Counted from the stretch's first letter, positions 14,663 to 64,000 are shown. The stretch is 64,000 nucleotides of DNA from an uncultured Gemmatimonadales bacterium (GCA_963740175.1 CAVUDL010000012.1:26434-90433); one strand, 5' to 3'. The notes: generated by a model not told the origin, from the sequence alone. A program made the numbers and translations.

Positions 14663-15847
14663 ATGCGACTCTCTTTCCATCAAAGGATCCTGCTCATCCT
14701 GGTATGTCTGGGCGCGATTCCGACCGCGCTTGCGATGCTCGGGTGGGGCTTGACGATTCGGTCGACGACCCGCGCGCCCGGGGCCCGGGATGCCGTGGAA
14801 GGAGTGGCCGGCTCGGGTCGCGCGCTGCTGCACACCATAGACTCCACCCGGCTCCGGCCCGCGGAGCGGAAGGCCCTGGCGGACCATGCCACCGAGCTGA
14901 ATACCGCTATTGGCCAGCTCCAGCGCGCCGAGACGTTCAGCCGCTACTACTACGCGGGACTCGGGCTGGTGATTTTACTGCTGGGCGGAGCCTTCCTGTA
15001 CGCCTCTATGAGATTCGGGGGCCATCTTTCACGCCAGTTGAGTCGTCCTATCGAAGAGCTGATCGGTTGGACCGGGAACATTCAAAGGATGGAGCCGCTG
15101 CCACCGGACCGGCCGAGGCGGGGGGCGCCAGAGTTTGCCGCACTCCGGACCGCACTGCGCGACATGGCCTCATCGCTGGAACGGGCCCGGTCACAGGAAA
15201 TCGAGGCCGAGCGACTCCGGGCCTTCAGGGAGACGGCCCGCCGGGTGGCGCATGAGATGCGCAACCCGCTCACACCGATCCGGCTGGCCGTCTCTGAGCT
15301 GGCACGGTCGGGCGCCCCTGATCACCGGGACGCGATCGATGTCCTGGTGGCTGAATCGGCCCGTCTGGAACAGCTGGCGCGGGAGTTCACCGAATTCGGT
15401 CGCCTTCCTGAGGGACCGCCTGCACCCCTCGATTTTACCGAGCTCTTGTCGGAACTGGCGCGGACCTCATTGCCGCCTGCCATGAAAGTGAGTCTTCGCC
15501 TGGACCCCGGAACTCCGGTCCTCCCCGCCCATTACGACCCCATGCGGCGGGCCTTCAGCAACATCCTGCGGAACGCGGTTGAGGCGTGCGGCGAAGTCGG
15601 CGCCCTCGAGATCACCGTTGCGCCCGACGATAGTGGCGTCCGAATCGAAATCTCGGACCACGGCCCCGGCGTGCCGCCCGACATCGCCGACCGGATCTTC
15701 GATCCCTACTTCACCGGCAAAGCGGGAGGCACCGGACTTGGGCTGGCCCTGGTCAAGCAGACGGTAGAGATGCACGGCGGAACGATCCAACTCAGGGATA
15801 CGCCCGGCGGAGGGGCGACGTTCGTCGTGCGGATGGCCCACCGGTGA
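14663..15847 (+). CDS. Sensor histidine kinase (2 TM + HAMP + HisKA + HATPase_c; NtrY/NtrB-like)
   Basis: H-box VAHEMRNPLTPI, N-box NILRNAVEA, G-boxes DHGPGV and GGTGLGLALV. Its stop overlaps the regulator start (GTGA at 15844). Confidence 0.85.
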   Translation: MRLSFHQRILLILVCLGAIPTALAMLGWGLTIRSTTRAPGARDAVEGVAGSGRALLHTIDSTRLRPAERKALADHATELNTAIGQLQRAETFSRYYYAGLGLVILLLGGAFLYASMRFGGHLSRQLSRPIEELIGWTGNIQRMEPLPPDRPRRGAPEFAALRTALRDMASSLERARSQEIEAERLRAFRETARRVAHEMRNPLTPIRLAVSELARSGAPDHRDAIDVLVAESARLEQLAREFTEFGRLPEGPPAPLDFTELLSELARTSLPPAMKVSLRLDPGTPVLPAHYDPMRRAFSNILRNAVEACGEVGALEITVAPDDSGVRIEISDHGPGVPPDIADRIFDPYFTGKAGGTGLGLALVKQTVEMHGGTIQLRDTPGGGATFVVRMAHR

Positions 15848-17217
15848 GCGGCGGGGAGCAGGTTCTGCTGGTAGATGACGAGGCCAACATACGCCGGATG
15901 TTGGGGGCCTTGCTCCGGAGTGAGGGCTTCAGCGTCAGTGAGGCGGCCAACGGCAACGCGGCGCTGCTGCTGCTCGACGAGGAAGACCCGGACGTCGTCC
16001 TCCTGGACCTGATGATGCCTCCGGGGCCAGACGGCCTGGAAACCCTCACCCGCATGCGAGAACGCGGCCGCTCCGCTCCGGTCATCATGATGAGCGGCAA
16101 GGCTCAGCTGAACGATGCGGTTCAAGCGGTGAAGCTGGGTGCGTTCCAATTCCTGGAGAAGCCGCTCAGCCCCGAAGGCGTCCTGGTGACGGTCCGGGCG
16201 GCGCTCGAGCTGAACCGCACCCGGGCGGAGAATCGAGCGCTTCGCGCCGAGCTGGGTCGCCGGTCGGACCTCATTGGAAGCGGATCGGCCATGCAACAGG
16301 TGGCGGACCTGATCGCCAGGGTGGCACCCACCGAGGCCAGAGTCCTCATTACCGGAGAGTCGGGGACGGGGAAAGAGCTGGTGGCCGCCGCGATCCACGC
16401 CGCCAGCCTGCGATCCGCCCGCGCCTTCGTGACGGTGAACTGCGCGGCTATCCCGCGGGACCTGGTCGAGTCGGAAATGTTCGGGCATGAGCGGGGCTCC
16501 TTCACCGGGGCAACCGAGCGGCGGTTGGGACGGTTCGAGCTGGCCCATGGTGGAACACTGTTTCTGGATGAGGTGGGCGACCTGAGCCAGGAGGCGCAGG
16601 CTAAGCTGCTGAGAACGCTGGAGACCGGGGAGCTTCAGCGGATCGGCGCGGAGAATACGACCCGGATCGACGCCAGAGTCGTGGCGGCCACCAACCGGGA
16701 CCTGGCCGAGGCAGTGAGTGGCGGCGGGTTCAGGGAAGACCTGTTCTTCCGCCTCAACGTCTTTCCCATCCACCTGCCGCCCCTGCGTGAGCGCCTCGAA
16801 GATCTGCCGGCCCTGGTGGCCCACCTCGCCGAGCGGGTGCGGCCGCGCCACGCGGTGCACTTCACCGATGCCGCGCTCGACGCGCTGGCCTCCTATTCCT
16901 GGCCCGGCAATGTGCGCGAGCTTGCCAACCTCGTGGAACGACTCAGCATTCTGAGTGGTCCCGTGGTGGACGCTCCTGCGGTGCGGCAGGTGCTCCGCGG
17001 CTCATTGGCGTCACCGTCGACCAACTCGCCAACGCTGCCGGCACAAGGCTTGAGCGATGCGCTGGACGAGTTCGAGCGAGGTCTGATTGCCACTGCGCTG
17101 ACGCAGGCCCAGTGGAACATGGCCGAAGCAGCCAGAATCCTGCAGACCGATCGCGCCAACCTGTACCGCCGGATGCGCCGGCTGGGTCTGGAGAAGAGCG
17201 CCGACCCGCAGTCCTAG
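15844..17217 (+). CDS. Sigma54-dependent response regulator (REC + AAA+ + Fis-type HTH; NtrC/NtrX-like)
   Basis: REC domain (LLVDDE...DVVLLDLMMP), Walker A GESGTGKE, sigma54-contact loop variant GSFTGA, Walker B LFLDEV and a C-terminal HTH (AEAARILQTDRANLYRRM). Confidence 0.9.
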   Translation: MSGGEQVLLVDDEANIRRMLGALLRSEGFSVSEAANGNAALLLLDEEDPDVVLLDLMMPPGPDGLETLTRMRERGRSAPVIMMSGKAQLNDAVQAVKLGAFQFLEKPLSPEGVLVTVRAALELNRTRAENRALRAELGRRSDLIGSGSAMQQVADLIARVAPTEARVLITGESGTGKELVAAAIHAASLRSARAFVTVNCAAIPRDLVESEMFGHERGSFTGATERRLGRFELAHGGTLFLDEVGDLSQEAQAKLLRTLETGELQRIGAENTTRIDARVVAATNRDLAEAVSGGGFREDLFFRLNVFPIHLPPLRERLEDLPALVAHLAERVRPRHAVHFTDAALDALASYSWPGNVRELANLVERLSILSGPVVDAPAVRQVLRGSLASPSTNSPTLPAQGLSDALDEFERGLIATALTQAQWNMAEAARILQTDRANLYRRMRRLGLEKSADPQS

Positions 17218-56427: not shown

Positions 56428-57287
56428 ACGTCTATCCGCTCCAGTGGGATCTCGGTCCAATCGAGATCACCGGCTATGGCCTCATGATGATGGTGGCCTT
56501 CCTCATGGGGGGCTGGCTGATCGCCCTCCAGCTGCGCCAGGCCCGGCTCAAGGAGGATTACGCAGCCGATATGGTTGCGGCCGCGGTGATCGGCGGAATA
56601 ATCGGGGCGAAGCTGTGGTACGTGGCGCTTACTGGAGATGCGGATGCCCTGTTCTCCCGGGGCGGGCTCGTCTGGTACGGCGGATTTATCGGAGGCGCGC
56701 TGGCGGTAATACTGAATGGGTGGCGATTGCGGGTGCCAATCCGCTGGACCATGCAGTTGGGGGCGCCGGCCCTGGCTGCAGCGTACGCGCTCGGACGGGT
56801 CGGCTGCTTCCTGGTCAATGACGACTACGGCCGCCCTACCGATCTTCCCTGGGGAGTCAAGTTCCCCCAGGGCCTGCCGCCTTCGACCGCTGAAAATCTG
56901 AAGAACCTGTTTGACATCCCGATTCCTCCGGGCGTGGATCCCGGAACAGTCCTGGCGGTCCACCCCACCCAGCTGTTTGAGGTCGCCGCCATGCTGGTGG
57001 CGTTTGCGGTGCTCTGGGCCCTCCGGAAGTCCGGGCGCCCGGTGGGCTGGCTCTTCGGCCTGTACCTGGTATTCGCCGGGATGGAGCGGTTTCTGGTCGA
57101 ATTCCTGCGAGCCAAAGACGATCGCATTCTTGGATCCTTCACTCTGGCACAACTCACCAGTGTGATCATCGTGGTGATTGGAATTGCGATTCTCGCCCTC
57201 TGGCACCGCCGTCCAGGCCCCAATCCCGGACTCTATTTGGAGACAGGGAAGAAACTGTCACCGGCCAAAATATCGACAGCTCGCTAA
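56424..57287 (+). CDS. lgt: Prolipoprotein diacylglyceryl transferase
   Basis: YGLMMMVAFL, GRVGCFLVNDDYGRPTDLPWGV, HPTQLFE and RFLVEFLR. Confidence 0.9.
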   Translation: MNVYPLQWDLGPIEITGYGLMMMVAFLMGGWLIALQLRQARLKEDYAADMVAAAVIGGIIGAKLWYVALTGDADALFSRGGLVWYGGFIGGALAVILNGWRLRVPIRWTMQLGAPALAAAYALGRVGCFLVNDDYGRPTDLPWGVKFPQGLPPSTAENLKNLFDIPIPPGVDPGTVLAVHPTQLFEVAAMLVAFAVLWALRKSGRPVGWLFGLYLVFAGMERFLVEFLRAKDDRILGSFTLAQLTSVIIVVIGIAILALWHRRPGPNPGLYLETGKKLSPAKISTAR

Positions 57288-57409
57288 GCTCTTTAGAATC
57301 AAGCGCATAGGAGACGAAGGCAGGATATGTACAAATTCTGCACTTCCAAGCCACTTGAGGTGCTCTGCGACTAACGTTGTCACATAACAACTTACACGAT
57401 CGCCTGCTT

Positions 57410-57424
57410 TGGCACCGCCCTTGC
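57410..57424 (+). promoter_or_regulatory. Sigma54 (-24/-12) promoter
   Basis: TGGCAC CGCCC TTGC is an exact match to TGGCAC-N5-TTGC. It sits in a 300-nt non-coding gap, preceded by the most AT-rich stretch of the window (57290-57400). Confidence 0.6.
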
Positions 57425-57435
57425 CTTACCTATGC

Positions 57436-57573
57436 CCGGGAGGTCAGTAAGACCTCAAGGAAAGGTGGTAGGTCGAAGAAGGGTGGAGCGGGCACTTCGG
57501 TCCGTCTCCGTAAACTCAGGGGGCGATCTACCACTCCTCATGCAAACGGCCCGTCGCGAGACGGGCCGTTTTG
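57436..57573 (+). ncRNA. Candidate sigma54-dependent small RNA (about 140 nt, family unknown)
   Basis: The predicted start is about 12 nt after the -12 GC. Hand-folded elements: hairpin GAGGUC-AGUAA-GACCUC (57440-57456); long-range stem 57458-57475 with 57524-57538 enclosing hairpin 57485-57509; then an intrinsic terminator. There is no credible ORF and no plus-strand gene downstream. Confidence 0.45.
57544..57573. terminator. Rho-independent terminator, usable from both strands
   Basis: ACGGCCCGTC-GCGA-GACGGGCCGT is a perfect 10-bp GC-rich stem. It is followed by TTTT on the + strand and preceded by AAA, which gives a U-run for the minus-strand rraA transcript. Confidence 0.75.
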
Positions 57574-57593
57574 CGTTGTAGGGCGCACCGAGG

Positions 57594-58076
57594 TCAGTCG
57601 GTCAGCCTTCGATCCGACACCACGATCCCATCCTCATCCGCGTACAGGTACTCAGTCGGAGAGAAAATCACACCGGCAAAGGTCACTTTCCCACCCCTGT
57701 CGCCCCTTCCCAGCTTCTGGCACCGCAGCGGCGACGTGCTCAGGGCACGCACCCCCAGCTTGATTTGGCGCATCTCGACCGAGTCCCGAACGGAACCGTT
57801 GATGATCAGTCCCGCCCACCCATTGGCGTGAGCCATGCCCGTGAGTCGTCCTCCCACCAGCGCGGTACGGAGCGAGCCGCCTCCATCTATCACCAGCACG
57901 CGGCCTCCCCCCGGCGTCCCCAGCGTTTCGCTGACGAGCGAGTTGTCCTCGAATACCCGCAGCGTCTCGATCGGACCGCCGAACTTTCGCAGCCCGCCGT
58001 AGTCGGTAAAAACCGGGTCCGCGATTCTCACGACCTCGGGAAACTCGTCACAGAGGTCGGCCGTGGTGAACTTCAC
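57594..58076 (-). CDS. rraA: RraA-family protein (RNase E regulator / HMG-CHA aldolase family)
   Basis: FTTADLCDEF, VLVIDGGGS...ALVGG and GLIINGSVRD. GTG start at 58076 overlaps the upstream stop (GTGA). Confidence 0.8.
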   Translation of the reverse strand: MKFTTADLCDEFPEVVRIADPVFTDYGGLRKFGGPIETLRVFEDNSLVSETLGTPGGGRVLVIDGGGSLRTALVGGRLTGMAHANGWAGLIINGSVRDSVEMRQIKLGVRALSTSPLRCQKLGRGDRGGKVTFAGVIFSPTEYLYADEDGIVVSDRRLTD

Positions 58077-60022
58077 GGGTTCAGCGCCACCGCGTTCTGG
58101 AGGCGGTGCGGGCCTATCACAAACGTCCACAGGAGCGCCGCCAGAAGTAGCGCCAGGAGCACGCTTTGCGCGAGCAAGGACTCCAGCGTCGGATAAATGC
58201 CGAGCGCGGGCAGGCGGGGCGCCCACGAGAATATGGTAGTGGGCAGCACGCCGCCGGCCTGGAGTTCCGCCACTCCTTTGCCCGCAAAGACGAAGGCCAT
58301 GTAGTAAAGAAACGCGCTGGTGACGGCGAAGAAGGGCTTGAGCGGAAGCCGTACGCCGAACCGGCTGATGGCGATGTAGACTCCCACCAGAATAGCGGCT
58401 CCCAGCGCGATTCCCGTCAATATCGGCATACCGCTACCCGCACCGCCGGTCAAAAACAGCGCCTTGTAGAAGAGCACGGTCTCGAACCCTTCGCGATAGA
58501 CCGCGAGAAACGCCGCCGAGGCTAGGGCCAGCGAGGAACCGCTGGTGAGTGCGTCGTTGACCTTGCTCTTCACGAAATGGTTCCACTTAACCACCTCCAT
58601 CTTGGAGAGCAGCCAGTAGCTCACATAAAACAGCACCACGGTGGCGACGACCATCGTCATGCCCTCCAGGATTTCCTGGTGAGCAGGCGAAAGGTGGAAC
58701 ACCGTCTCGATCGCGACTGCGGTGGCGAGGCTGGCACCAACTGCGGCCGCCACACCAAGGTTGATGTCCCGCTTCCGGTGGGACGCGCCCATCTTCACCA
58801 GAAACGTCATCAGGGCCCCCACGATCAGAATCGCCTCGAGTCCTTCGCGCAACATGATCACCAGAGACTGGAACACCAGGTTGACCGGCGATAGCTCATT
58901 GCCCACCGTCAGCTCGGCTTTCTCCAGCCCGGTGTCCAACCGGTGGCGTAAAGCCTCCAGCTTCCCAGAGCCTCCGCTTCTCCCGACCTCTCCTCGCAAG
59001 GCAGCAAAGTCCGCTTCCAGCTCCGCGGCTAATGCCGGATCCTTGGCCCGCACTTCCCGCTCGACTTGTTCGAACGTCATATAGGCGTCGAACGCGCGAG
59101 TATTGGCCGACGAGTCGCCTCTCCGCGCGAGTGCGTACGTGGAATCGAGCTGAGCCCGTACCTCGTCGAAGACCTGTCCGGTCGCAGCCGCAGTCGCATC
59201 AGGCTGAGCCCGACGAATGGCGGCGACTTGAGCCGGGGTAGCGGTGGACTTGTCGGTCGCTTCGAGGGCAGCGAGCAGGTCGAGGTCCGACATGCGTCCG
59301 GTGGTCTCAAAGGACTGGAGGGTCGGCGGCACGGTACCGGCGGGAGCCGGCAAGCGGAGGAGGGTCGCGTACAGAGCGGCAGCCCAGCGGTCCTCAGCCG
59401 GCAAACTCCCCTCGAAGGAGGGCATCGCGGTGCCCACTACTCCTATGGTGATTCGGCGATAGTAGTCCAGCGGGGACTGATCCTGAAGCGCGCTCCGATC
59501 GGACAGGTTGGTTGGTGCCGGATCGAGTCCAGCTGCCGCGGGCCCATCCCCCCTGCCGAGCGTGCCGTGGCAGCTCGCGCAATTGGATTGATATACCTCT
59601 CCTCCCCGCACCAGCGACGGGGGCTGCTTGGGAATGTCGTCAAGTGTGACGCCCAGCTCACTCGCGATGCCGCTGGTCAGCCGCCGGACCTTAGCCTCCA
59701 CCGAGTCCGGAGCTCCGGTGCGATCCACCAGCAGGATGATCGAGTCGATCTGAGTGACAGCAACGCGCCTTATAGCCGCGGGTAAAGCGGCCGCAGATCG
59801 CCTCGACTCCTGGAGGAACAGGCGGGCTTCACTGACTTCCGCCGGTGAGACCACTCGCCCATCAACGATGCCGACCCGGTATTCCTGGGCGGCCAGTTGG
59901 GCCGTTGCCGCCAGCCGACGAACTATCGGCGCCGGGTCAGTGGGAGATGCGGTTTGTTGGGGGGTTACCAGGAGGGTGGCCCCGAGGACGAGGGCGCCTC
60001 CACCAATGAGAACCATTTTCAT
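58073..60022 (-). CDS. Cytochrome c / FTR1-family iron permease fusion
   Basis: Signal anchor, heme motif CASCHG in the periplasmic N-terminal half, then a polytopic FTR1 domain with two REGxE motifs (MLREGLEAIL and VYREGFETVLF). ATG at 60022 is preferred over the ORF start at 60097. Confidence 0.8.
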   Translation of the reverse strand: MKMVLIGGGALVLGATLLVTPQQTASPTDPAPIVRRLAATAQLAAQEYRVGIVDGRVVSPAEVSEARLFLQESRRSAAALPAAIRRVAVTQIDSIILLVDRTGAPDSVEAKVRRLTSGIASELGVTLDDIPKQPPSLVRGGEVYQSNCASCHGTLGRGDGPAAAGLDPAPTNLSDRSALQDQSPLDYYRRITIGVVGTAMPSFEGSLPAEDRWAAALYATLLRLPAPAGTVPPTLQSFETTGRMSDLDLLAALEATDKSTATPAQVAAIRRAQPDATAAATGQVFDEVRAQLDSTYALARRGDSSANTRAFDAYMTFEQVEREVRAKDPALAAELEADFAALRGEVGRSGGSGKLEALRHRLDTGLEKAELTVGNELSPVNLVFQSLVIMLREGLEAILIVGALMTFLVKMGASHRKRDINLGVAAAVGASLATAVAIETVFHLSPAHQEILEGMTMVVATVVLFYVSYWLLSKMEVVKWNHFVKSKVNDALTSGSSLALASAAFLAVYREGFETVLFYKALFLTGGAGSGMPILTGIALGAAILVGVYIAISRFGVRLPLKPFFAVTSAFLYYMAFVFAGKGVAELQAGGVLPTTIFSWAPRLPALGIYPTLESLLAQSVLLALLLAALLWTFVIGPHRLQNAVALNP

Positions 60023-60083
60023 CCAGTTTGTGGATCGCTCCGGGCAAACTAGAGTGACATGGTCGGAATTGAAAGTGGCAGGC

Positions 60084-60470
60084 CTATGGGGCTTCAACTA
60101 CCGCGATCGCGCCAGCCGAAATTGCGGAATGAGTGAGAGATATCTGGATCCGCAGTCCTCCCCGCTCCTGCGACAGGCGGGCGGCCAGACCGTGAAGCTG
60201 GATGGCTGGCCGCCCCTCGGGGTCTCGGGAAACCTCGATTTCGCGCCACCCAATCCCCCGGGCACCACTCAATGCCTGCATCGCCTTGTACACTGCTTCC
60301 TTGGCGGCAATCCGGGCAGCGGCGTGGCCGGTGGCATCGGGACGAGTGGAGAGATACTCCCGTTCTTTCTGCGAAAAGAAGCGGGTCATGGCCTGCTCGC
60401 CCTTATTGGCTAGTAGAGACCTGATCCGCTCGAGGTCAACCAGATCGATTCCCACCCCGATGACCGTCAT
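60084..60470 (-). CDS. acpS: Holo-[acyl-carrier-protein] synthase
   Basis: IGVGIDLVDLERI, FSQKEREY and AAKEAVYKA. Confidence 0.85.
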   Translation of the reverse strand: MTVIGVGIDLVDLERIRSLLANKGEQAMTRFFSQKEREYLSTRPDATGHAAARIAAKEAVYKAMQALSGARGIGWREIEVSRDPEGRPAIQLHGLAARLSQERGGLRIQISLTHSAISAGAIAVVEAP

Positions 60471-62894: not shown

Positions 62895-64000
62895 TCACGC
62901 AATGATGTTGTAGCGTTTGATCTTGTTGATCAGCGTTGCACGCGAGATGCCAAGCTCGATCGCCGCGCGGGTTCGATTGCCGGCATGATGCTTCAAGGTG
63001 CGCTCGATGTGCTGCCGTTCCAGGTCCTCGAGGCTGAGCGGGGTGTGCCGTCGGTCGCCTACGCCCGCACGAGCCCGGAACTCGCCGGGCAGGTGCTCCA
63101 CACTCACCGCGGGCTGACCTCGTCCCAGGATGAGCGCGCGCTCCAGCACGTTGCGCATTTCCCGCACATTGCCGGGCCATGGGTAGGAGAGCAGCCGCTC
63201 CAGTACCTCGCCCGACAAGGCCGGAGGCCCATCAGGGAGCTCCGAGCGCAGGTCGCCCATCAGCCGAGTAATCAGTGCCAACCGGTCTTCCCGGGACCGA
63301 TCGCGCAGCGCCGGCATCGTCAGCGGCATGACGCTCAGCCGGTAATACAGGTCTTCCCGAAAGCGCCCTCCCTCCACTTCAGCCTGCAGATTCTTGTTGG
63401 TAGCGGCCACGAGCCGCACGTCCACCGTGATCTCACGGGTCCCCCCGAGGCGACGGAACGTCTTGGTCTCCAGCACCTTCAGCAGTTTAGGCTGGAGCTC
63501 GGGGGCCAGGTCGCCGATCTCGTCGAGAAATATGGTTCCGTGATCCGCGATCTCGAACAGACCTTGCTTTCGATCCTTGGCGTCGGTGAATGCGCCCTTC
63601 TCGTGACCGAACAGCTCGGAGTCCAGGAAGGTGGCGTTCAGGCCGCCGCAGTTCACCTCCACGAAAGGTGCTTTTGTCCGCGGGCTGAGATCGTGGATCA
63701 TGCGCGCGACCCAGCCCTTGCCGGTCCCGCTCTCACCGTTCAGCAGCACCGTAGTCCGCTCACTCTGGGCGAGAAGTCCCACCTGGTGGGCGAAGTCCTG
63801 CATACCCGAGGAGGCGCCGAGAGAGTCGAGGCCGTGTCCCGGTGCGCTCTGAACCAGCAGCGCCTCGTTGATCCGCCGCAACCTGGCCTTGTCGGCCACT
63901 CTCGCTGTGGCCGCGGCAAGGTGCTCCATGTCGACCGGCTTGGTCAGAAAGTTTTCGGCCCCGAGCTGCATGGCCCGCACCGCGGTCGGCACGTCCGCCT
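62895..64000 (-). CDS. Sigma54-dependent transcriptional activator (NtrC family); N-terminus outside the window
   Basis: Walker A GESGTGKG, sigma54-contact loop variant GAFTDA, Walker B IFLDEIGDL, YPWPGNVRE and Fis-type HTH AAIELGISRATLINKIKRY. The ORF is open to the window edge, where the end of the receiver domain is visible. Confidence 0.85.
   Translation of the reverse strand, partial: ADVPTAVRAMQLGAENFLTKPVDMEHLAAATARVADKARLRRINEALLVQSAPGHGLDSLGASSGMQDFAHQVGLLAQSERTTVLLNGESGTGKGWVARMIHDLSPRTKAPFVEVNCGGLNATFLDSELFGHEKGAFTDAKDRKQGLFEIADHGTIFLDEIGDLAPELQPKLLKVLETKTFRRLGGTREITVDVRLVAATNKNLQAEVEGGRFREDLYYRLSVMPLTMPALRDRSREDRLALITRLMGDLRSELPDGPPALSGEVLERLLSYPWPGNVREMRNVLERALILGRGQPAVSVEHLPGEFRARAGVGDRRHTPLSLEDLERQHIERTLKHHAGNRTRAAIELGISRATLINKIKRYNIIA

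Follow-up and report, generated by a model that had tools for sequence, protein, structure and literature searches.

A conserved, structured RNA gene with a sigma-54-type promoter in the gap after lgt in Gemmatimonadales

The window analysed here is a 64,000-nt stretch of DNA from an uncultured Gemmatimonadales bacterium (GCA_963740175.1, CAVUDL010000012.1:26434-90433). On its plus strand, lgt ends with a stop codon at 57287, and a gap of 306 nt separates this codon from the end of a minus-strand RraA-family gene at 57594. The original prediction, made from the window sequence alone, placed in this gap an orphan, sigma-54-driven, highly structured stand-alone transcript. Promoter conservation, covarying stems and convergent neighbours support that claim, and comparative sequence analysis establishes that the gap holds a conserved, independently promoted, non-coding structured RNA gene. 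The prediction also held that no plus-strand gene follows; indeed, the RraA-family gene (57594-58226) and the gene for an FTR1/cytochrome c protein (58073-60097), which lie 3' of the RNA, are both on the minus strand. The gap contains the following features, in which P1 to P4 denote the helices of the RNA.

57328-57343 (no strand assigned), upstream dyad TGTACAAATTCTGCAC of the form GT-N11-AC, a candidate enhancer (upstream activating sequence, UAS) about 107-110 bp 5' of the predicted start
57383-57395 (no strand assigned), A/T-rich, IHF-like element CATAACAACTTAC between the dyad and the promoter, containing ACTTA; moderately supported
57410-57424 (plus), predicted sigma-54 promoter TGGCACCGCCCTTGC, with -24 element TGGCAC, spacer CGCCC and -12 element TTGC
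57436-57576 (plus), predicted RNA of about 140 nt, its start taken from the geometry of the -12 element and its end from the terminator
57440-57456 (plus), P1, the 5' hairpin GAGGUC-AGUAA-GACCUC; the hairpin is kept and its sequence varies among relatives
57465-57475 (plus), 5' strand of P2, GUGGUAGGUCG; 11 pairs, with 100% of cells paired
57476-57480 (plus), 5' side of the internal loop, AAGAA; nearly invariant, its columns being invariant or at least 90% conserved (65 sequences)
57481-57484 (plus), 5' strand of P3, GGGU, which pairs with ACUC at 57514-57517
57485-57509 (plus), hairpin P4, with an invariant CAC in its apical loop (columns C60, A61 and C62)
57514-57523 (plus), 3' strand of P3 (ACUC) and 3' side of the internal loop (AGGGGG); columns C82-G92 are invariant except A85
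57524-57534 (plus), 3' strand of P2, CGAUCUACCAC, which pairs with 57465-57475
57535-57545 (plus), single-stranded linker UCCUCAUGCAA, pyrimidine-rich and anti-Shine-Dalgarno-like, conserved only moderately
57546-57572 (plus), terminator hairpin and UUUU; a perfect 10-bp GC-rich stem (57546-57555/57560-57569) with loop GCGA

Relatives were collected by a protein search with Lgt, keeping one genome per species. This gave 80 loci with Lgt identities of 66-87%, nearly all labelled Gemmatimonadales or Gemmatimonadota, in which the element was located by blastn and by a covariance model built in this analysis. A metagenome sample was assembled from contigs that match the strict core TCGAAGAAGRGT-N20-45-CTCAGGGGGCG (at least 120 contigs). 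The combined set of related loci comprises 201 sequences and 1.16 Mb. Unless another number of sequences or loci is given, counts on the structure and the core refer to 65 sequences that were selected through Lgt and not through the RNA, and are therefore unbiased with respect to the RNA.

Of these loci, 77 had enough flanking sequence, and in 70 of them the element follows lgt at a distance of about 140 nt. It is also carried by 119 of the 120 listed metagenome contigs, the remaining one (L152) being a chance match to the core. In every such contig with enough flank the context is the same, namely tsaD-lgt -> RNA <- (rraA) <- FTR1. The downstream genes are convergent in all loci, including those without rraA, and the RNA is present in a single copy per locus and, as judged by the covariance model, in the window. 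Because it is conserved in about 190 related loci, the feature is beyond chance. At least 11 of the 120 listed metagenome contigs (L082, L086, L091, L092, L094, L114, L155, L159, L169, L180 and L190) end inside the RNA core or within about 90 nt of it, probably because assembly graphs break at a segment that is near-identical among co-occurring species.

An exact sigma-54 promoter had been predicted at 57410-57424, and TGGCACCGCCCTTGC is indeed an exact plus-strand match to TGGCAC-N5-TTGC, the sole one in 64 kb. With one mismatch allowed, the window contains two sites against 4.0 expected, that is, fewer than by chance. The -24 and -12 elements are kept in relatives: TGGCA[CT]-N5-[TC]TGC is seen in 67 of 69 genome loci, always at the same offset, and the five bases of the spacer vary freely. 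Furthermore, all 154 occurrences of TGGCA[CT]-N5-TTGC[ACT] in the 1.16 Mb of the combined set lie directly 5' of the RNA core. A regulon search for other sigma-54 promoters sharing the enhancer found none in the window and none in the 1.16 Mb of related loci, and no sigma-70-like site was found in 57000-58000.

Two elements upstream of the promoter recur in relatives. The GT-N11-AC dyad keeps a constant position (-95 to -79 relative to TGG) in 52 of 68 loci, compared with 7.6 ± 2.7 in shuffled sequences. It reads, for example, TGTCGAGAAATTTGACA in relatives, and one clade carries the variant GTC...GGTCG; we consider it a candidate UAS for a sigma-54 activator. The sequence WATCAANNNNTTR, allowing at most two mismatches, recurs in 24 of 68 loci (8.8 expected) and clusters at -28/-29 from TGG. 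In many relatives this IHF-like element reads ATCAACGACTTAC, which is a perfect IHF consensus; the window copy is degenerate. Taken together, the sequence and architecture of the promoter region strongly indicate that the RNA is sigma-54 dependent.

Standard -12 geometry puts the predicted start at about 57436, which coincides with the onset of the 5' hairpin. The plus strand of 57425-57580 folds with a minimum free energy (MFE) of -77.3 kcal/mol, compared with -54.7 ± 4.0 kcal/mol in dinucleotide shuffles, which served as fold controls (z = -5.6; none of 200 shuffles was as good). The minus strand folds less well (z = -4.2), and the covariance model scores 137.8 bits on the plus strand of the window versus 17 bits for its best minus-strand match. 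Of the helices that had been drawn by hand, the 6-bp hairpin at 57440-57456 (P1) reappears unchanged in the MFE structure. The proposed 15-pair stem (P2) exists, with 12 pairs in the MFE structure and 11 conserved pairs (57465-57475/57524-57534), but its extra outer pairs are not kept in relatives. The inner 9-bp hairpin at 57485-57509 (P4) also stands, but an additional 4-bp helix (P3, 57481-57484/57514-57517) is located between it and the outer stem. P2, P3 and P4 thus form a rod that encloses a purine-rich internal loop. The 10-bp intrinsic terminator was correctly recognised as a perfect GC-rich stem, but its T-run is short and a strict scan did not accept it.

The terminator, 22 nt away from the stop codon of rraA, may act for both convergent genes. 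In the lower 8 bp of its stem (CGGCCCG/CGGGCCG; window 57542-57574, columns 143-177 of alignment A1) the sequence is conserved to at least 90%, which is not the case for the free 5' hairpin. A possible reason is that the terminator hairpin also ends the convergent rraA, or that it is itself a binding site. The 3' strand of P2 and the linker (57524-57541) read GAUCUACCAC-UCCUC in the window and GAUCUACCACCUCUCU in the consensus. This reading resembles the 16S rRNA 3' end, which carries the anti-Shine-Dalgarno sequence, and the resemblance may be a coincidence in a CU-rich stretch.

The predicted stems covary in relatives. RNAalifold yields 38 pairs for the 65 sequences, 19 of them with compensatory double changes, compared with 9.2 ± 1.4 covarying pairs after shuffling (no shuffle out of 500 attained 19). 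The cells of these pairs are paired in 98.7% of cases, compared with 32-48% in controls with slid partners. Specifically, U-A changes to C-G in P2 (10 sequences at one pair); in P3, G-U becomes A-U in L049 and L068, and no pair is ever broken; P4 has compensatory changes in 5 of its 9 pairs, and the terminator, taken as its extended consensus stem, in 12 of 14. P1 aligns poorly because its sequence is free. When each sequence is folded on its own, however, 59 of 64 relatives have a P1 helix of 5 bp or longer, compared with 18 expected from shuffles, and the hairpin persists through 55 different sequences. Conserved G-U pairs in 56 and 63 sequences identify the plus strand as the RNA, because they would be A-C on the opposite strand.

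The core of the RNA is more conserved than the proteins encoded beside it. Of its 73 columns, 34 are invariant, and its mean pairwise nucleotide identity is 91%, versus protein identities of 73% for Lgt and 77% for TsaD in the same genomes. The invariant bases comprise the inner pairs of P2 (GGUCG/CGAUC), AAGAA, P3 (GGGU/ACUC), AGGGGG and the CAC of the P4 loop; column A85 is at least 90% conserved, with one exception (L026). Outer P2 and P4 covary, while both strands of the internal loop and its closing pairs stay invariant. The linker is far less conserved: it contains four or more consecutive pyrimidines in 39 of 65 sequences, varies in the others, and is missing altogether from L042 and L044.

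In a monophyletic, more distant group of loci, two tandem rods at a distance of 87-113 nt share a single promoter in front and a single terminator behind. The two-module loci are as follows.

L113:9447-9626
L120:8986-9172
L154:1307-1486
L103:7163-6980 (minus)
L100:2893-2731 (minus)

The helices of these rods have diverged and covary, and the loop and its closing pairs are the same. The 257-nt two-module RNA folds into two identically shaped rods (z = -6.0), and its second module has no CU-rich tail.

The RNA is absent from L012, L019, L025, L061, L066, L074 and L078. In L077 only a terminator-like hairpin is present, and in L059 (3822-3940) only the 3' half of the core and the terminator are left. 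In L012 (3852-3869) the stop codons of lgt and rraA are 16 nt apart, as expected for a clean deletion, and a further site of clean loss of the RNA gene is seen at L019/L204:6899-6910. The losses left the neighbouring genes undisturbed. Because the RNA-less genomes are scattered on a tree of TsaD and Lgt, at least five losses were independent, and the pattern on the tree implies that the RNA is ancestral to the order Gemmatimonadales and dispensable. Dispensability fits a conditional regulator and not a housekeeping RNA.

The element was compared with known RNA classes. No known family had been recognised in it, and at gathering thresholds Rfam 15 gives no match in the window, in 13 relatives or in the two-module form. 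A permissive search returned only noise, with no match at E < 0.5. The best sub-threshold match in the window is Yfr1 (16.4 bits, E = 0.77, threshold 38), which covers ACUCCUCA and the terminator, and that of the two-module form is STnc370 (23.2 bits, threshold 54). Inspection of the consensus by hand identified neither a kink-turn nor a loop E: although CGAAGAA resembles the Kt-7 strand, no register puts G-A and then A-G beside the closing pair, and there is no AGUA. CsrA-type GGA-in-loop motifs, also sought by hand in one- and two-module sequences, are not conserved.

A protein-coding gene was likewise rejected, in line with the earlier judgement that the open reading frames (ORFs) here are implausible: no ORF is conserved among relatives in frame, start or length. 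The 49-codon ORF that overlaps the element in the window starts 5' of the predicted transcription start, and a recurring 26-codon ORF on the minus strand is a by-product of the invariant core. The view that the element is neither a leader nor a riboswitch also holds, since the downstream genes are convergent in all relatives, no locus has a co-oriented downstream gene and the terminator directly follows the RNA. A repeat or multicopy element was rejected as well, given one copy in the window and the position of 119 of the 120 listed metagenome matches at the lgt locus.

The window was said to encode two sigma-54 activators (15844-17217 and 62895-64000), and both products contain a Sigma54_activat domain. 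The candidate nearest to the RNA is listed below.

62895-64000 (minus), sigma-54 activator gene of REC-AAA+-HTH type, cut by the end of the window

Its full-length product has 448 amino acids in L091 (5408-6754, minus). The gene is syntenic, about 5 kb from the RNA, in every locus that is long enough. Its product is 92-98% identical in most loci, 82% in L171, which is more distant, and 65% in the two-module L154; neighbouring and intervening proteins are 41-80% identical. Longer contigs obtained through FTR1 searches show that in four close relatives the RNA and the activator occur together. The protein reached no NCBIfam equivalog (best AtoC, 379 bits against a cut-off of 714), and its gene has no adjacent kinase. 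It belongs to a conserved, envelope-themed block that encodes an Omp85/TamA-like protein, TamB, a YegS-like lipid kinase, the activator, a 61-amino-acid ORF, NlpC/P60, HAD, an unknown protein and ACPS. In L203 (5780-7122), a metagenome-assembled genome (MAG) from long reads, the activator gene is apparently frameshifted, with a 318-amino-acid product and the remainder in another frame, and the RNA is intact (148.8 bits); the frameshift could be a sequencing error or mark a pseudogene.

Among the neighbouring genes, the FTR1 iron permease of the window (58073-60097, minus) is fused to a cbb3-type cytochrome c domain. As listed, its ORF overlaps that of the RraA-family gene (57594-58226, minus) by about 150 nt. 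The start of the 210-amino-acid rraA ORF is probably over-extended in the window, because the called rraA product of relatives has about 162 amino acids. One locus, L064 (CAXMUQ010000157.1), is labelled Acidimicrobiia and has a Gemmatimonadales-like tsaD-lgt (68-69% identity), and a protein named Geminicoccaceae (P0004) is 85% identical to the FTR1 protein of the window; both names are likely binning or labelling errors in public MAGs.

Several sigma-54-dependent small RNAs (sRNAs) are known, and the arrangement described here is reminiscent of glmY and glmZ. Their sigma-54 promoters are activated by GlrR, a REC-AAA+-HTH protein that binds TGTC-N10-GACA dyads more than 100 bp upstream, and IHF is required and has sites in between (PMC3045617). 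GlmY sequesters the RapZ protein through folded stem-loops (PMC7073468). Similarly, the Gemmatimonadales RNA is a stand-alone gene with the order enhancer, bend, -24/-12, followed by upstream hairpins, a single-stranded stretch and a terminator, and its dyad, TGTC/TGTA-N9-GACA/TACA, is of the same type as that of GlrR. It differs in having one dyad of 17 bp instead of three of 18 bp, in an activator gene that is not adjacent (the nearest is 5 kb away), in its phylum, and in the lack of a paralogous second sRNA and of an Rfam match.

The Qrr sRNAs of Vibrionaceae are about 100 nt long and depend on sigma-54 and the response regulator LuxO (PMC10162802). Like them, the RNA described here is small and has a sigma-54-type promoter, in this case a predicted one. 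Part of Qrr is extremely conserved in sequence across Vibrionaceae, but that conservation resides in single-stranded seeds for Hfq-dependent pairing, whereas the invariant bases here form a structured internal loop, and Rfam gives no match; in addition, qrr1 adjoins luxO. CrcZ and NrsZ of Pseudomonas are sigma-54-dependent sRNAs (with CbrB and NtrC, respectively), encoded directly downstream of the activator gene, and carry repeated modules in a single transcript, a modular build that the two-module form parallels. CrcZ sequesters a protein, and its modules are short A-rich motifs; here the module is a structured rod, and most genomes have only one. Pxr of Myxococcus, a lineage-restricted RNA, is about 110 nt long and contains several stem-loops; its promoter is predicted to be of the sigma-54 type. 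A tandem duplication of Pxr is reported in some relatives, but there the whole gene is duplicated, whereas here a module is duplicated inside one transcript; the phylum and genomic context also differ, and there is no Rfam match. The RNA is thus a new family within a known kind, that of the sigma-54-dependent sRNAs Qrr, GlmY/GlmZ, CrcZ, NrsZ and Pxr, and introduces no new principle.

From the sequence data we infer transcription of the RNA, its sigma-54 dependence, its action in trans and the nature of its partner. It is rather probable that the gene encodes an enhancer-dependent, trans-acting regulatory RNA whose rod serves as a platform for recognition, with a protein a likelier partner than an mRNA seed. 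The promoter would be silent by default until an enhancer-binding protein on the GT-N11-AC dyad remodels the closed complex, and an IHF-like bend would probably assist the activator at the promoter. Transcription would then run from about 57436 to the hairpin at 57546-57572. The resulting RNA would consist of a variable 5' hairpin, the rod P2-P3-P4 with its invariant purine-rich loop, a short pyrimidine-rich linker and the terminator. It would act in trans with the folded rod as its functional unit, most likely by binding a protein and titrating or recruiting it, and the linker may contribute a base-pairing arm. Recognition by a protein is favoured over seed pairing because conservation extends over both strands of the folded loop and because the fold was duplicated in evolution.

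Several observations weigh against this reading. The exact promoter match is only suggestive when taken alone, because 0.07 matches are expected by chance and 7 of 100 shuffles yield at least one. The two-module clade keeps TGGCAC but has nTGA in place of TTGC at -12. Both the start and the end of the RNA are predictions, and the T-run of the terminator consists of four T followed by GCGTTGT, which fails the scan criterion of five T in eight. The activator at 62895-64000 has a GAFTDA loop and not the canonical GAFTGA, and the RNA-less genome of L019 keeps the C-terminus of this activator at 88.7% identity. The activator is therefore not dedicated to the RNA, and for these two reasons no activator can be assigned to it. 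No rpoN was seen in the sequence examined, which is part of the genome. Among the at least 120 listed metagenome matches, the strict core is found nowhere besides the RNA locus; because it does not occur elsewhere in this sample, the module does not mimic an identical mRNA site. Finally, strong sequence invariance is also a property of the seed regions of base-pairing sRNAs such as Qrr, so invariance alone is no proof of protein binding.

That last point bears on a somewhat unlikely but serious alternative, in which the same sigma-54 gene encodes a classical base-pairing sRNA. The linker, or an opened strand of the rod, would pair with Shine-Dalgarno regions, probably with an Hfq-like chaperone, and the rod would be only a scaffold or chaperone site. 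The architecture is typical of such RNAs (5' hairpin, single-stranded stretch before the terminator, AAG repeats), the linker is CU-rich in 39 of 65 sequences (for example CUCUCU, and UCCUC in the window), GAUCUACCACCUCUCU resembles the 3' end of 16S rRNA, and the weak Yfr1 match includes ACUCCUCA. However, no other part of the RNA is as poorly conserved as the linker: 26 of 65 sequences have no four pyrimidines in a row there, and L042 and L044 have lost it. Moreover, the invariant bases of both strands are held within a stable rod, and the second module of the two-module clade comes without a CU-rich tail. A crude full-length duplex scan against the 64 start regions of the window (about 1-2% of the genome) gave meaningless whole-length duplexes and was uninformative. 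It is also conceivable, though unlikely, that the rod represents a new structural class of domain, one for sensing or docking: either a small-molecule aptamer or the docking site of an RNA-binding regulator. If so, two signals, the activator and a ligand or partner, would be joined in one trans-acting RNA, and one clade would have doubled the domain for cooperativity or capacity. The narrower proposal is improbable; it makes the rod an aptamer that binds a ligand, so that a trans-acting or sponge RNA would carry an orphan, riboswitch-like sensor, in tandem in one clade. Riboswitch-grade invariance in an internal loop framed by covarying helices, and tandem modules in the single transcript of one clade, are what it would lead one to expect, but there is neither an expression platform nor a co-oriented downstream gene in any locus, each genome has one locus, no Rfam aptamer matches, and a second sensor is less needed where an enhancer-dependent promoter already gates expression.

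Two further explanations question the gene itself. In one, which we consider highly improbable, the RNA is real but sigma-54 independent, arising from a sigma-70-type promoter that escaped recognition or from lgt mRNA through read-through and processing, and TGGCAC-N5-TTGC is conserved for another reason. The missing canonical GC at -12 in the two-module clade, a start site that is predicted only and the atypical GAFTDA loop of the nearby activator would fit. Nevertheless, the GG and GC of the promoter are kept at exact spacing around a free spacer, P1 starts where the -12 position leads one to expect, the 1.16 Mb contain no other copy of the motif, the dyad and the IHF-like site lie at enhancer distances, and the search of 57000-58000 revealed no sigma-70-like site. 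In the other, which is scarcely credible, there is no independent gene: the element belongs in cis to the flanking genes, as a 3' untranslated region or a terminator working in both directions for lgt and rraA, or else it encodes a small protein or is a repeat. A terminator so close to the rraA stop codon could serve both strands, and the 49-codon ORF does overlap the element. This ORF, however, begins 5' of the predicted start and is conserved in neither frame, start nor length; the element is kept where rraA is absent and cleanly deleted elsewhere (L012), it occurs once per window and locus, and a terminator would have no need of a conserved promoter or of a covarying core of 73 columns.

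An enhancer-dependent, trans-acting regulatory RNA with a protein-recognising rod thus remains the reading that we prefer. Gemmatimonadota are an abundant soil phylum, for which a limited keyword literature search and Rfam 15 gave no described sRNA or other regulatory RNA. The comparative support for this one is unusually complete, comprising a promoter of an activator-gated class, enhancer and bending sites, a covarying structure and a core more conserved than the flanking proteins. With one promoter, one dyad and a highly conserved orphan response regulator 5 kb away, the locus would offer an entry point to sigma-54 signalling in the phylum. The compact folded motif would allow direct fishing for its partner, and the repeated clean losses and the duplication of the module are natural experiments on its function.

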